Source: Escherichia coli
GTDB taxonomy: Bacteria; Pseudomonadota; Gammaproteobacteria; Enterobacterales; Enterobacteriaceae
Assembly: GCF_003334785.1 (NCBI RefSeq)
Contig: NZ_QOWV01000014.1
Strand: one strand, 5' to 3'
DNA length: 64,000 nucleotides
Both the position numbers and the translations under genes were made by a program. Below, one piece after another: positions 14,451-30,392 of this stretch. Each line of letters begins with the position of its first letter. Positions within the stretch are counted from its first letter, which is position 1. The notes under the pieces were generated by a model. It was not told the origin of the DNA, did not search any database, and was given only the letters and a program-made list of their open reading frames with translations.

Positions 14451-14550
14451 TGCCGGATGCGGCGTGAACGCCTTATCCGGCCTACAAAATCGCTTAAATT
14501 CAATATATTGCACCATCCTCGTAGGCCTGATAAGCGTAGCGCATCAGGCA
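14451..14550. repeat. BIME/RIP-type element: two inverted REP units (tgccggatgcggcgtgaacgccttatccggcctaca ... gtaggcctgataagcgtagcgcatcaggca) around a linker containing TTCAATATATTGCA
   Basis: REP consensus recognised by eye; the same linker family recurs at 21878.. and 30291... Confidence 0.8.
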
Positions 14551-14570
14551 ATTCTGTGTTTGTCATACGT

Positions 14571-14604
14571 AAAAAAGGGCGATCTTGCGACCGCCCTTTT
14601 TTTA
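14571..14604. terminator. Bidirectional intrinsic terminator at the 3' end of pgm (A6-hairpin-T8)
   Basis: aaaaaagggcgatcttgcgaccgcccttttttta, read from the sequence. Confidence 0.75.
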
Positions 14605-14614
14605 TTAAATGTGT

Positions 14615-16255
14615 TTACGCGTTTTTCAGAACTTCGCTAACAATCTCAACCGCTTCTTTCTCAATCTGCTTGCGATGTTCTTCACCGAGGAAGCTTTCGC
14701 AGTAGATCTTATATGCGTCTTCCGTGCCTGACGGACGCGCGGCGAACCAGCCGTTGTCAGTCATCACTTTCAGACCGCCAATAGAAGCACCGTTGCCCGG
14801 AGCAGCAGTCAGGCGCGCGGTGATCGGGTCACCTGCCAGGGTGCTGGCGCTCACCATTTCCGGAGACAGCTTAGACAGCGCCGCTTTTTGTGCGGAAGTC
14901 GCAGCTGCCTGCAAACGGTTGTAGCTCGGCGCACCAAAGCGTTTTGCCAGTTCGTTGTAGTGTTCCTGCGGGTTCTTACCGGTGACAGCGGTGATTTCCG
15001 CCGCCAGCAGACACATGATGATGCCGTCTTTGTCGGTGGACCACGGCGTGCCGTCGAAACGCAGGAAGGAAGCCCCTGCACTCTCTTCGCCGCCAAAGCC
15101 GAAGCTGCCGTCGAACAGACCATCGACAAACCATTTGAAACCTACCGGGACTTCTACCAGTTTACGGCCCAAGTCGTTGACCACACGGTCGATCATCGCA
15201 GATGAAACCAGCGTTTTACCGACGGCAACATCTTTGCCCCACTGCGGACGATGCTGGAACAGGTAATTGATTGCCACCGCCAGGTAGTGGTTCGGATTCA
15301 TCAAACCTGCCGGAGTGACGATACCGTGACGGTCATAATCCGGGTCGTTAGCAAACGCCAGATCGAACTTATCACGCAGTGCCAGCAGGCCCGCCATCGC
15401 ACACTCGGAGGAGCAGTCCATACGGATCGCGCCGTCTTTATCAAGGTGCATAAAGCGGAAGGTTTGATCGACCTGATCGTTAACGATAGTCAGGTTGAGG
15501 TTGTAATACTCGCCAATACGCTTCCAGTATTCGATACCGGAACCGCCCAGCGGATCAACGCCCAGCGTCAGGCCCGCTTTCTGAATCGCGGCCATATCAA
15601 CGATATCGGCCAGACCTTCCACGAACGGCTGCACCAGATCCTGCTCTTTCACATGACCGGATGCCATCGCTTCGTCGAGGGAGATACGCTTCACGCCTTT
15701 CAGGCCATCGGCCAGCAGTGCGTTGGCCCTGTCTTCCACCACTTTAGTGACGTTGGTATCAGCCGGGCCACCATTTGGCGGATTGTATTTGATTCCACCA
15801 TCTTCCGGCGGGTTATGGGACGGTGTAATCACGATACCGTCTGCCAGCGGGCCACCTTTTTTATTGTGAACCAGGATGGCATTGGAAACGGCAGGCGTCG
15901 GGGTGAAGCCATTGTTTTCCTGCACAATGACATCAACGCCGTTCGCTGCCAGCACTTCCAGAACGGAAATGAATGCAGGTTCGGACAGGGCGTGAGTATC
16001 TTTACCCACATAGCAAGGGCCAGTGATGCCGTTTTTCGCACGTTCTTCAGCAATTGCCTGAGCGATCGCCAGAATGTGCGGCTCGTTAAAGCTGTGGCGC
16101 GCTGCACTGCCACGGTGACCGGAAGTACCGAATTTCACCGCGTGCTCCGCATTCCCTGCTTCTGGTTTCAGTACATAATATTGCGCCGTCAGTTGGGCGA
16201 CGTTAATCAAATCACTCTGTTGTGCAGGTTGGCCTGCACGATTGTGGATTGCCAT
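14615..16255 (-). CDS. pgm: Phosphoglucomutase
   Basis: Track ORF 14615..16306 trimmed to the ATG at 16255 ([35 protein letters not shown]...), 546 aa; phosphoserine loop TPSHNP visible. Confidence 0.95.
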
Positions 16256-16280
16256 TGCTTTGTCCTTTGTCTGCAACGTT

Positions 16281-16826
16281 TTAGATAGTTCCGCAAACCT
16301 TCTCAATCAATTCCGCCGGGAATTGCATCGACTGCATGATGTGTTCGATCATGCTGCATTTACGGCCGGTGTTGGTGTTGGTGATCACCCAATACGGCGT
16401 GCCTGGCACATGTTTCGGCTTGGTCTGATTACCATTTTTCAGCAGCGTTTGTTCATCTGCCGCAAAGTAAACGCGTGTACGACCGTGCAACGATTCCGTT
16501 GCTTCGGCAAACGCCTGGGCGTCAAGAGAATATAGTGTAGACAACAGCAGCATAAAGCGATTGACCGCTCGCTTTTGCTCTGCGTATTCATCCGAAAGCA
16601 GAAGTTCACGCATTGCGCGAACCTTGTCTTTAATCGTTTTGACCGGCTTCGCTTCGACGATAGCAGGTGACGCAACGCGAACCTCTTTCGTCACCGGAGC
16701 AGCAGGCTGTGATGCGGCGGAAAATTTCAACATACGCCGTAAAATGTCGGATGCGCTCTCGCCGATATGCTTAGTGTGGCTGGCAATATAGCTGTAGAGT
16801 TCATCATCAACTTCAATCGTTTTCAT
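16281..16826 (-). CDS. seqA: Replication-origin sequestration protein SeqA
   Basis: Track ORF 16281..16961 trimmed to the ATG at 16826 ([35 protein letters not shown]...), 181 aa; 25 bp upstream of pgm, consistent with a seqA-pgm operon. Confidence 0.93.
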
Positions 16827-28218: not shown

Positions 28219-29439
28219 ATGACACCAGGCGGACAAGCTCAGATAGGTAATGTTGATCTCGTAAAACAGCTTAACAGCGCGGCGGTTTATCGCCTGATTG
28301 ACCAGTACGGGCCAATCTCGCGGATTCAGATTGCCGAGCAAAGCCAGCTTGCCCCCGCCAGCGTAACCAAAATTACGCGTCAGCTTATCGAACGCGGGCT
28401 GATCAAAGAAGTTGATCAGCAGGCCTCCACCGGGGGCCGCCGCGCTATCTCCATCGTCACCGAAACCCGCAATTTCCACGCAATCGGCGTACGGCTTGGT
28501 CGTCATGACGCCACCATCACTCTGTTTGATCTCAGCAGCAAAGTGCTGGCAGAAGAACATTACCCGCTGCCGGAACGTACCCAGCAAACGCTGGAACATG
28601 CCCTGTTGAATGCCATTGCTCAGTTTATTGATAGCTACCAGCGCAAACTGCGCGAGCTGATCGCGATTTCGGTGATCCTGCCAGGGCTTGTTGACCCGGA
28701 CAGCGGCAAAATTCATTACATGCCGCATATTCAGGTAGAAAACTGGGGGCTGGTAGAAGCTCTGGAAGAACGTTTTAAAGTGACCTGTTTCGTTGGTCAC
28801 GATATCCGTAGTCTGGCGCTGGCGGAGCACTACTTCGGTGCAAGTCAGGATTGCGAAGACTCCATTCTGGTGCGTGTCCATCGCGGAACCGGGGCCGGGA
28901 TTATCTCTAACGGGCGCATTTTTATTGGCCGCAACGGCAACGTCGGTGAAATTGGCCATATTCAGGTCGAACCGCTGGGTGAACGCTGCCACTGCGGCAA
29001 CTTTGGCTGCCTGGAAACTATCGCTGCCAACGCTGCCATTGAACAACGGGTGTTGAATCTGTTAAAGCAGGGCTACCAGAGCCGCGTGCCGCTGGACGAC
29101 TGCACCATCAAAACTATCTGCAAAGCCGCGAACAAAGGCGATAGTCTGGCGTCGGAAGTAATTGAGTATGTCGGTCGTCATCTGGGTAAAACCATCGCCA
29201 TTGCTATCAACTTATTTAATCCGCAAAAAATTGTTATTGCCGGTGAAATCACCGAAGCCGATAAAGTGCTGCTCCCTGCTATTGAAAGCTGCATTAATAC
29301 CCAGGCGCTGAAGGCGTTTCGCACTAATCTGCCGGTGGTACGTTCTGAGCTGGATCACCGCTCGGCAATCGGCGCTTTTGCGCTGGTAAAACGCGCCATG
29401 CTCAACGGTATTTTGCTCCAGCATTTGCTGGAAAATTAA
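28219..29439 (+). CDS. nagC: Transcriptional regulator NagC (ROK family)
   Basis: Track ORF 406 aa, MTPGGQAQIGNVDLVKQLNSAAVYRLIDQYGPISRIQIAEQSQLAPASVTKITRQLIERGLI... Confidence 0.95.
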   Translation: MTPGGQAQIGNVDLVKQLNSAAVYRLIDQYGPISRIQIAEQSQLAPASVTKITRQLIERGLIKEVDQQASTGGRRAISIVTETRNFHAIGVRLGRHDATITLFDLSSKVLAEEHYPLPERTQQTLEHALLNAIAQFIDSYQRKLRELIAISVILPGLVDPDSGKIHYMPHIQVENWGLVEALEERFKVTCFVGHDIRSLALAEHYFGASQDCEDSILVRVHRGTGAGIISNGRIFIGRNGNVGEIGHIQVEPLGERCHCGNFGCLETIAANAAIEQRVLNLLKQGYQSRVPLDDCTIKTICKAANKGDSLASEVIEYVGRHLGKTIAIAINLFNPQKIVIAGEITEADKVLLPAIESCINTQALKAFRTNLPVVRSELDHRSAIGAFALVKRAMLNGILLQHLLEN

Positions 29440-29486
29440 TGTGCTTTTATAGTGGCGCTTATTGTTGTCAATATTCTGGGTAGTCC

Positions 29487-30239
29487 ATGACCATTAAAAA
29501 TGTAATTTGCGATATCGACGGCGTGCTGATGCACGATAACGTCGCCGTACCGGGTGCAGCGGAATTTTTGCACGGGATTATGGATAAAGGCCTGCCGCTG
29601 GTGTTGCTGACCAACTATCCTTCGCAGACTGGGCAAGATCTGGCGAACCGCTTTGCCACCGCAGGTGTCGATGTACCTGACAGCGTGTTTTATACCTCTG
29701 CGATGGCGACTGCCGATTTCCTGCGTCGCCAGGAAGGCAAGAAAGCGTATGTGGTGGGCGAAGGCGCACTGATTCATGAACTGTACAAAGCCGGTTTCAC
29801 TATTACCGATGTGAACCCTGATTTCGTGATTGTTGGCGAAACGCGTTCCTACAACTGGGACATGATGCATAAAGCAGCCTATTTCGTCGCTAACGGTGCA
29901 CGTTTTATCGCCACCAATCCGGACACCCACGGGCGCGGTTTTTATCCCGCTTGTGGCGCGTTGTGTGCAGGGATTGAGAAAATCTCCGGGCGCAAACCGT
30001 TCTATGTTGGTAAGCCCAGCCCGTGGATCATCCGCGCAGCATTAAACAAAATGCAGGCGCATTCGGAAGAAACGGTGATTGTCGGCGATAACCTGCGTAC
30101 CGATATTCTGGCCGGCTTCCAGGCAGGTCTGGAGACGATTCTGGTGCTTTCTGGTGTTTCGTCGCTCGACGATATCGACAGTATGCCTTTCCGCCCCAGC
30201 TGGATTTACCCGTCAGTCGCTGAAATCGACGTTATCTGA
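29487..30239 (+). CDS. nagD: HAD-family UMP phosphatase NagD (UmpH)
   Basis: Track ORF 250 aa, MTIKNVICDIDGVLMHDNVAVPGAAEFLHGIMDKGLPLVLLTNYPSQTG... Confidence 0.93.
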   Translation: MTIKNVICDIDGVLMHDNVAVPGAAEFLHGIMDKGLPLVLLTNYPSQTGQDLANRFATAGVDVPDSVFYTSAMATADFLRRQEGKKAYVVGEGALIHELYKAGFTITDVNPDFVIVGETRSYNWDMMHKAAYFVANGARFIATNPDTHGRGFYPACGALCAGIEKISGRKPFYVGKPSPWIIRAALNKMQAHSEETVIVGDNLRTDILAGFQAGLETILVLSGVSSLDDIDSMPFRPSWIYPSVAEIDVI

Positions 30240-30243
30240 ATAG

Positions 30244-30267
30244 CAACCACGTCTGCGGACGTGGTTG
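30244..30267 (+). terminator. Perfect 10-bp hairpin (caaccacgtc tgcg gacgtggttg) right after nagD; no T-run, so a weak terminator or stabiliser
   Basis: Read from the sequence. Confidence 0.35.
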
Positions 30268-30290
30268 GCTCTGATGACAAACGCCAAACT

Positions 30291-30392
30291 GCCTGATGCG
30301 CTACGCTTATCAGGCCTACGCAGCTCCTGCAATATATTGAATTTTCATGCTTTTGTAGGCCGGATAAGGCGTTCACGCCGCATCCGGCATGA
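30291..30392. repeat. BIME/RIP-type element (inverted orientation relative to 14451..14550)
   Basis: gcctgatgcgctacgcttatcaggcctac ... TGCAATATATTGAA ... tgtaggccggataaggcgttcacgccgcatccggca. Confidence 0.8.

Follow-up and report, generated by a model that had tools for sequence, protein, structure and literature searches.

Three copies of one intergenic repeat, here called E1, E2 and E3, lie 3' of the pgm, glnS and nagD stop codons in a 64-kb stretch of the Escherichia coli chromosome (NCBI RefSeq assembly GCF_003334785.1, contig NZ_QOWV01000014.1). We refer to this whole stretch as the window. The three copies belong to a repeat of E. coli that has long been described, and they are already known. 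They are BIME-1 elements (also named RIB or RIP), non-autonomous enterobacterial repeats in which two inverted repetitive extragenic palindromic (REP) sequences enclose a long L linker. Very probably this linker is a site for integration host factor (IHF) and the copies are insertions or deletions beside terminator hairpins. The window is inverted relative to MG1655 at about 0.67-0.73 Mb. E1, E2 and E3 are base-for-base the same as the MG1655 copies at NC_000913.3 positions 715247-715387, 707816-707955 and 699399-699539, respectively. The RefSeq annotation of MG1655 lists no REP or RIP repeat features at all; the gene rayT (b0228) is annotated in that genome.

The name RIB (reiterative ihf BIME) is said to go back to Boccard and Prentki in 1993, and the name RIP to Oppenheim and colleagues in the same year. 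For the shorter REP form we use the name Z1, which we take to be the usage of Bachellier in 1994, besides that of Ton-Hoang in 2012. BIME-1 elements combine z1 and y REPs, occur in single copy and have a long, well-conserved L linker with a frequent IHF site (Ton-Hoang 2012, PMC3333891), a description for which that paper cites Boccard & Prentki 1993.

Anatomy of the three elements

Each copy consists, in this order, of a 35-nt Y REP (TGCCGGATGCGGCGTGAACGCCTTATCCGGCCTAC), a 35-nt L linker and an inverted 30-nt Z1 REP (GTAGGCCTGATAAGCGTAGCGCATCAGGCA). Both REPs are the same in all three copies. The parts of the elements and their outer flanks are, by position in the window:

14422-14450, + strand: E1 outer left flank (A-type motif), CAGTTTGTTGACAAAGTGTTCGTTGTTTT, which fits the left-flank consensus
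14451-14485, + strand: E1 Y-type REP, aligned to the Y hairpin of naRNA4
14486-14520, + strand: E1 L linker, 35 nt, with an A-tract at 14486-14489 and an IHF-like core, ATTCAATATATTG, at 14498-14510
14521-14550, + strand: E1 inverted Z1-type REP
14551-14566, + strand: E1 outer right flank (B-type motif, truncated), ATTCTGTGTTTGTCAT, which fits the right-flank consensus
21860-21877, + strand: E2 left flank (A-like), GGATTGTTTGCTGTTTCT, repeated as ACTGTTTGTCTGTTCCT at 21992-22008
21878-21912, + strand: E2 Y-type REP
21913-21947, + strand: E2 L linker, with the core ACTCAATATATTG at 21925-21937
21948-21977, + strand: E2 inverted Z1-type REP
22009-22040, + strand: additional Y-like REP of E2 (86% repeat match; fold of -27.1 kcal/mol)
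30267-30289, - strand: E3 B-type flank, from the family consensus and the alignment of filled and empty alleles
30290-30319, - strand: E3 Z1-type REP
30320-30354, - strand: E3 L linker, with the core at 30330-30342 (-)
30355-30389, - strand: E3 Y-type REP
30390-30419, - strand: E3 A-type flank, the end of the 153-nt segment missing from empty alleles

A first-pass annotation, made by a model from the letters of the window, had proposed three copies of one family, each an inverted REP pair around an IHF-type linker. All three were found at the places it gave, with the same REPs and a linker of 35 nt each, and the architecture fits BIME-1/RIB/RIP (Ton-Hoang 2012). Its limits were right for E1 (14451-14550) and nearly right for the inverted E3 (30290-30389); the end that it gave for E2, 21960, cuts the Z1 REP, and the element extends over 21878-21977. 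The conserved outer flanks are additional to the parts that it had noted.

In an alignment to Rfam naRNA4, the Y REP falls on the first (Y) hairpin with high posterior probability. The units of naRNA are Y-l-Z2 (Qian 2015), and the Z1 REP of E1-E3 is shorter than the Z2 hairpin of the naRNA4 consensus. In a multiple alignment of the three copies the linker is invariant at 21 of 35 positions, including the 5' AAAA and an exact 13-mer, TCAATATATTGCA. This 13-mer occurs exactly at three sites in the window (14500, 21927 and, on the - strand, 30328). With up to two mismatches it has 9 matches in the 64 kb against 1.58 expected, a count that none of 100 shuffles reached, which rules out chance similarity of the three elements. 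Near-matches at 20724, 51926 and 60951 have no adjoining REPs, and at least the latter two read as coding.

The similarity extends beyond the REPs, and E1 and E3 are 85% alike across 141 nt (14426-14566 and 30274-30414). Throughout the family the outer flanks, of about 29 and 24 nt, are conserved (left consensus CAGATTGCTGACAAAGTGCGCTTTGTTCA, from 82 copies; right consensus ATTTTGCGTTTGTCATCAGTCTCA) and form an imperfect terminal inverted repeat, TGACAAA...TTTGTCA. A family profile (nhmmer) gives scores of 104.3 for E1 and 105.5 for both E2 and E3, the highest in the DNA scanned with it (the 64-kb window and 530 kb of MG1655). Every locus holds a single Y-L-Z1 unit, and the one additional REP of E2 comes with no second linker. 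None of the three overlaps an open reading frame (ORF) of at least 90 aa except at the edge of E3, where a mechanically called ORF (30389-30682) touches the last base of the Y REP and overlaps the A-type flank.

The three copies fall within 16 kb (14451-30389), whereas the other 500 kb of MG1655 that were scanned hold roughly one copy every 80-100 kb, and E1-E3 are also the best-scoring ones. By a rough Poisson estimate that allows for the number of windows, this clustering is not significant.

Conservation of the L linker and probable IHF binding

An IHF site comprises an optional A-tract of 4-6 A, followed by WATCAR and then TTR (bioRxiv 10.1101/382655). To see the linker in the wider family, species-representative genomes were scanned with a pattern that is blind to it, CCGGCCTAC-N30-40-GTAGGCCTGAT. 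The scan returned at least 132 REP pairs in at least 120 loci, and 75 of the pairs listed have a 35-nt linker. Among the matches listed, the hosts include Escherichia coli, E. albertii, Pseudocitrobacter, Citrobacter, Superficieibacter and Pluralibacter, and the 35-nt linkers have the consensus AAAATCGTGCAAATTCAATATATTGCAGAAACCTT, which those of E1-E3 fit. Across 74 linkers from these matches, the best-conserved blocks are columns 1-4 (AAAA, 0.80-0.93), 14-18 (TTCAA, 0.92-0.95) and 23-26 (TTGC, 0.88-0.92). They correspond to the A-tract, WATCAR and TTR, which supports the reading of the linker as an IHF site. Conservation is slightly lower in columns 8-12 (0.73-0.85) and in the N4 bases, with minima at columns 19 and 21 (0.77-0.78), and clearly lower in columns 5-7 (0.43-0.64) and the 3' tail (0.50-0.73). 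Some linkers of Citrobacter and Superficieibacter carry a perfect TATCAA-N4-TTR (TTG, and TTA in one) with differing N4 bases. When the six flanks of E1-E3 were compared by BLAST with the listed loci (at least 120), the sole orthologous locus was pgm in strain E69.

The family was also compared with published chromatin immunoprecipitation (ChIP-chip) peaks of IHF (Table S4 of Myers 2013, PMC3688515) over 530 kb of MG1655, in which copies were located with a 100-position nhmmer family profile and peaks cover 15.8% of the DNA. Six of the nine L-bearing copies lie inside peaks (binomial P = 8e-4), versus 3 of 19 REP clusters without L in the same 530 kb (one-sided Fisher P = 0.013), which in this sample show no enrichment. 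E1 is among the copies inside a peak (714205-714912, U00096.2 coordinates). IHF binding is well supported for the BIME-1 family and plausible for E1-E3, of which only E1 has a documented in vivo signal; IHF may also occupy E2 and E3.

Gene context and adjacent terminators

The first-pass annotation had placed the elements at the 3' ends of convergent or tail-to-tail genes. Their position 3' of pgm, glnS and nagD was confirmed, but the three gene pairs it named are co-directional: pgm and ybfP are both on the - strand, as are glnS and chiP, and the + strand carries both nagD and asnB. All three elements have their Z1 side turned toward the upstream gene. The flanking genes are convergent at six further MG1655 copies (yaaX/yaaA, mutT/yacG, cueO/gcd, nlpE/yaeF, yajD/tsx and mscK/ybaM), and the ancestral potE/pgm gap of E1 is also convergent.

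Each of the three elements adjoins a terminator-type hairpin:

14577-14596, - strand: pgm intrinsic terminator hairpin and T-run, between the pgm stop (14615) and E1 (-22.4 kcal/mol, z = -6.3)
21835-21859, - strand: glnS downstream terminator hairpin, directly adjoining E2 (10 pairs, then TTCTGCTTTT)
30245-30266, + strand: nagD 3' hairpin, followed in strains without E3 by the T-tract TCTTATTTTTAC, which E3 replaces

The pgm terminator was overlooked by the promoter/terminator scan and was established by folding; a duplicate of it, 81% alike to 14569-14599, is present at 12877-12907. E2 is situated between the stop codon of glnS and its hairpin (21835-21859), and is thus within the 3' untranslated region (UTR) of glnS. 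E3 begins at the 3' foot of the nagD hairpin.

Two of the intergenic gaps show further features. In the region 22009-22058, the additional Y-like REP next to glnS begins 16 nt 3' of the stop codon. According to work cited in PMC12306157, a REP no more than 15 nt from a stop causes ribosomes to stall and reduces translation of the gene before it, and the glnS-proximal REP is just beyond this limit. At the other locus, the end of E1 is 20 nt from the ybfP ATG (14401), and the gap (14402-14421) fits a ribosome-binding site but not a promoter. Since there is no promoter space between E1 and ybfP, ybfP would be transcribed through E1 or from within it.

Presence and absence among strains

Presence of the elements was counted in 5,426 complete genomes of E. 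coli. Of these, 2,087 have E1 and 2,280 have E3 at the respective locus, and roughly 2,560 carry the long allele of E2. For three other copies the counts of filled loci are 3,881 (mscK/ybaM), 3,805 (yajD/tsx) and 2,741 (cueO/gcd), so that occupancy at all six loci checked spans 38-72%. Strain haplotypes differ: K-12 has all three elements of the window, O157:H7 Z563 has E2 alone, and 2013C-3513 and WS3294A have none. Bachellier and colleagues reportedly described in 1997 that natural isolates have lost whole BIME-1 elements by excision.

The alleles themselves show what is gained or lost. At nagD, the filled allele has a 153-nt segment in place of the 12-nt T-tract after the hairpin. At glnS, the short allele lacks 131 nt bounded by direct repeats of about 30 nt, and its sole REP is the Y-like REP at 22009-22040. 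The potE-pgm gap is only 55 nt in O157-like and ST131 genomes, where it holds one shared bidirectional terminator and no E1. In strain E69 it reads terminator, RIP, terminator; in K-12 and in the window it reads terminator, RIP-end remnant, ybfG, ybfP, RIP, terminator. The remnant is the following feature:

12908-12950, + strand: RIP left-end remnant (A-type motif and truncated Y REP), CTGTTTGTTGGCAAATAGTTCGTTATTTATGCCGCATCCGGCAG compared with the family consensus, adjoining the potE-side terminator

This remnant of BIME-1 beside potE suggests that the ybfG/ybfP segment lies within a former single element. The gap (12868-14615) appears to be an insertion hot spot, with a ybfG-like ORF, ybfP and E1 between two terminator copies, and in some strains it has received IS1 and IS200C insertions.

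At all six BIME-1 loci examined for it, a GC-rich terminator hairpin has its foot 0-5 nt from one end of the element. Copies seen in this position outside the window are:

Locus L136, 39958-40057 (MG1655 489958-490057): BIME-1 at a hairpin foot
Locus L135, 30967-31066: BIME-1 at a hairpin foot
Locus L129, 38698-38797: BIME-1 at a hairpin foot

The mscK/ybaM locus resembles that of E1 in having a hairpin on both sides of the element, and its empty allele has a single hairpin.

Proposed mechanism and alternative explanations

We propose that the L linker acts as a tripartite IHF site, AAAA-N8-ATTCAA-N4-TTG, and that IHF, once bound, would introduce a sharp bend into the DNA separating the REP palindromes. 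If transcription of the upstream gene continues into the element, the 3' end of the RNA could fold as two stable REP hairpins or, alternatively, as a single long Z1:Y hairpin. Copies would be inserted or deleted beside terminator hairpins and vary between lineages, making any local effect dispensable. The elements may in this way influence mRNA stability or the diffusion of supercoils, and they may be mobilized by RayT, the REP-associated transposase.

Several results weigh against this interpretation. The strict IHF consensus WATCAANNNNTTR has 4 matches in the window and none in the linkers of E1-E3. These fit 8 of its 9 specified positions and also have the A-tract, and all three match, as ATTCAATATATTG or ACTCAATATATTG, if one mismatch is allowed; however, the window then contains 58 matches against a chance expectation of 53, and 55 of them are outside the linkers. 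The consensus alone, in the kind of check that the first-pass annotation itself had suggested, does not raise the three linkers above background. E2 is outside the ChIP-chip peaks, the nearest being 543 nt away, and E3 has no peak within 1.1 kb, so that of the three copies only the pgm copy lies in a peak. The comparison presumes that Table S4 uses U00096.2 coordinates, the sequence to which the reads of Myers 2013 were aligned; the fit of two narrow peaks is in agreement with this assumption. The copies of the family are related by descent, and conservation of the linker is therefore not independent evidence of selection. E1 lies beyond the strong pgm terminator, which probably leaves it outside the main pgm transcript and makes it an unlikely stabilizer of pgm mRNA. 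Finally, E1-E3 are missing from 53-62% of the genomes and are thus dispensable; none of them is required, and the same holds for all copies checked. The roles proposed earlier for them, as transcript stabilizers, insulators and nucleoid-protein anchors rather than inert spacers, are conjectural.

One alternative, which we take seriously without favoring it, is that the elements are selfish or near-neutral DNA. Their IHF site would then be kept for the spread or excision of the element itself, with IHF as a host cofactor of a RayT-type reaction, and would have no host role at pgm, glnS or nagD. In favor of this explanation, all six loci are dimorphic and the haplotypes of strains differ, and conservation of the linker over copies and genera is also what selection acting on the element itself would produce. 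Moreover, TnpA(REP) can cut the y, z1 and z2 REPs in vitro, as well as sites in the linkers (Ton-Hoang 2012, PMC3333891). However, deletion alone could produce the polymorphism, no sign of IHF in REP or BIME mobilization was found in this analysis or in the literature cited here, and the in vivo IHF occupancy of most copies is compatible with an architectural role for the host. A related scenario, in which BIME-1 is still gained or lost in E. coli, insertion is directed to the foot of terminator hairpins, sometimes duplicating the whole hairpin, and the IHF site serves insertion or excision, seems to us improbable. Two loci can be cited for a target duplication of palindrome length, namely potE/pgm, where E1 stands between two terminators, and mscK/ybaM. 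Yet the empty gaps are just 37-55 nt long, so the adjacency to terminators may reflect which insertions were tolerated, not targeting.

Other explanations place the function in RNA. As RNA, E1-E3 fold into stable structures (-46.6 to -48.8 kcal/mol, z-scores of -3.9 to -4.7), and it is conceivable, if rather unlikely, that the REP pair mainly serves as a 3' stabilizer or attenuator of the glnS and nagD transcripts, the IHF site being incidental. REPs have been reported to stabilize mRNA and attenuate transcription, in studies cited by Ton-Hoang 2012 (PMC3333891); E2 is part of the glnS 3' UTR, and read-through into E3 is to be expected since E3 replaced the T-tract of the nagD terminator. On the other hand, E1 is beyond an intact pgm terminator, and a role in RNA leaves unexplained both why the conserved linker positions are those of an IHF site and why the L-bearing copies, but not other REP clusters, are located at IHF peaks. 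Far less probable still is that the linker encodes the small RNA ES036 (CssrF) and is conserved as an RNA hairpin, UGCAA-loop-UUGCA, instead of as a protein site. The Rfam model RF02751 (ES036) is essentially the L linker plus GTAGGCCU, and its match to E3 (30312-30354, - strand) scores 41.1 bits, above the gathering score of 37.6; E2 (28.9 bits) and E1 (24.7 bits) remain under this threshold. In E1, E2 and E3 alike, the strand that would encode ES036 is antisense to the genes on either side. Among 61 unique linkers from the matches listed, the 3' arm TTGCA is nearly fixed and the 5' arm TGCAA varies, all five pairs are kept in 23 of the 61, and compensatory changes are almost absent. Such one-sided variation fits a protein site on DNA, not an RNA stem. 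The ES036 identity was dropped on the strand orientation and the lack of covariation support, and a literature search on ES036/CssrF returned nothing relevant. The RF02751 family looks like the BIME-1 linker itself, with no distinct gene.

We therefore retain BIME-1 with an IHF-site linker as the reading of E1-E3. As repeats of an annotated type in the best-studied bacterial genome, described in 1991-1994, they matter little in themselves. Readers of this region may nevertheless find it useful that the gene pairs are co-directional, that the IHF consensus is insufficient alone, that the in vivo signal is confined to the pgm copy and that the copies vary between strains. This variability cautions against assigning a fixed regulatory role for glnS, nagD, asnB or chiP, and the pattern of terminator-adjacent insertion is a modest lead on how BIME-1 moves.

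Other repeats and neighboring loci

REP-like palindromes without an L linker are present in the window at 23876-23915, 33210-33284, 40286-40327 and 46670-46711. A direct repeat of 145 nt, 90% alike, occupies 8614-8758 and 12949-13093, the second copy adjoining the BIME-1 remnant by potE. Positions 47823-48595 and 50620-51392 share three collinear blocks of 72-77% identity, 2,797 nt apart, and look like paralogous genes. In the ST131 strain 2822 (L141, 9361-18501), the place of nagE after glnS is taken by genes with annotations of the D-threonate and sialic-acid type, which extend over at least 9 kb. Y-Z1 pairs with shorter linkers of about 16-17 nt were seen in L133 at 39756-40115 (MG1655 339756-340115) and in L134 at 7483-7763; they have profile scores of 58-65 and no L linker, and some form tandem arrays of four, one of which overlaps yahH.

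Comparison with known systems

E1-E3 share with BIME-1/RIB/RIP a Y REP and an inverted Z1 REP around a long, conserved L linker with a putative IHF-type site, the occurrence in single copy and the position 3' of transcription units. They differ in that E2 has its additional Y-like REP and that all three are in co-directional gaps, unlike the six other MG1655 copies, which are convergent. BIME-2 elements and the REP325/naRNA4 arrays also contain the Y REP, and the Y hairpins of E1-E3 score 38-42 bits against naRNA4, under its gathering score of 59.5. BIME-2, however, has a Z2 REP, which is longer than Z1, and its linkers are short, of S type and lack an IHF site; it forms tandem arrays and is the preferred gyrase target. 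The Z1 REP, 35-nt L linker and single units of E1-E3 rule out a BIME-2 identity.

The 43-nt model consensus of Rfam RF02751 (ES036), AAAuUUGUGCAAAUUCAAUAAAUUGCAGGAaAUACGUAGGCCU, is equivalent to the L linker and the start of Z1. Like REPINs and REP doublets mobilized by RAYT, E1-E3 have inverted REPs within a larger palindrome, terminal inverted flanks, a dispersed intergenic distribution and rayT in the same genome. In contrast to these, the spacer of BIME-1 is long, conserved and probably protein-binding, and RayT is a putative mobilizer of BIME-1. A parallel for the linker itself is the H' IHF site of phage lambda attP: the two are collinear in the A-tract, 8 nt, WATCAR, 4 nt, TTG and CA, and the L linker has ATTCAA (ACTCAA in E2) for TATCAA and four A's for six.

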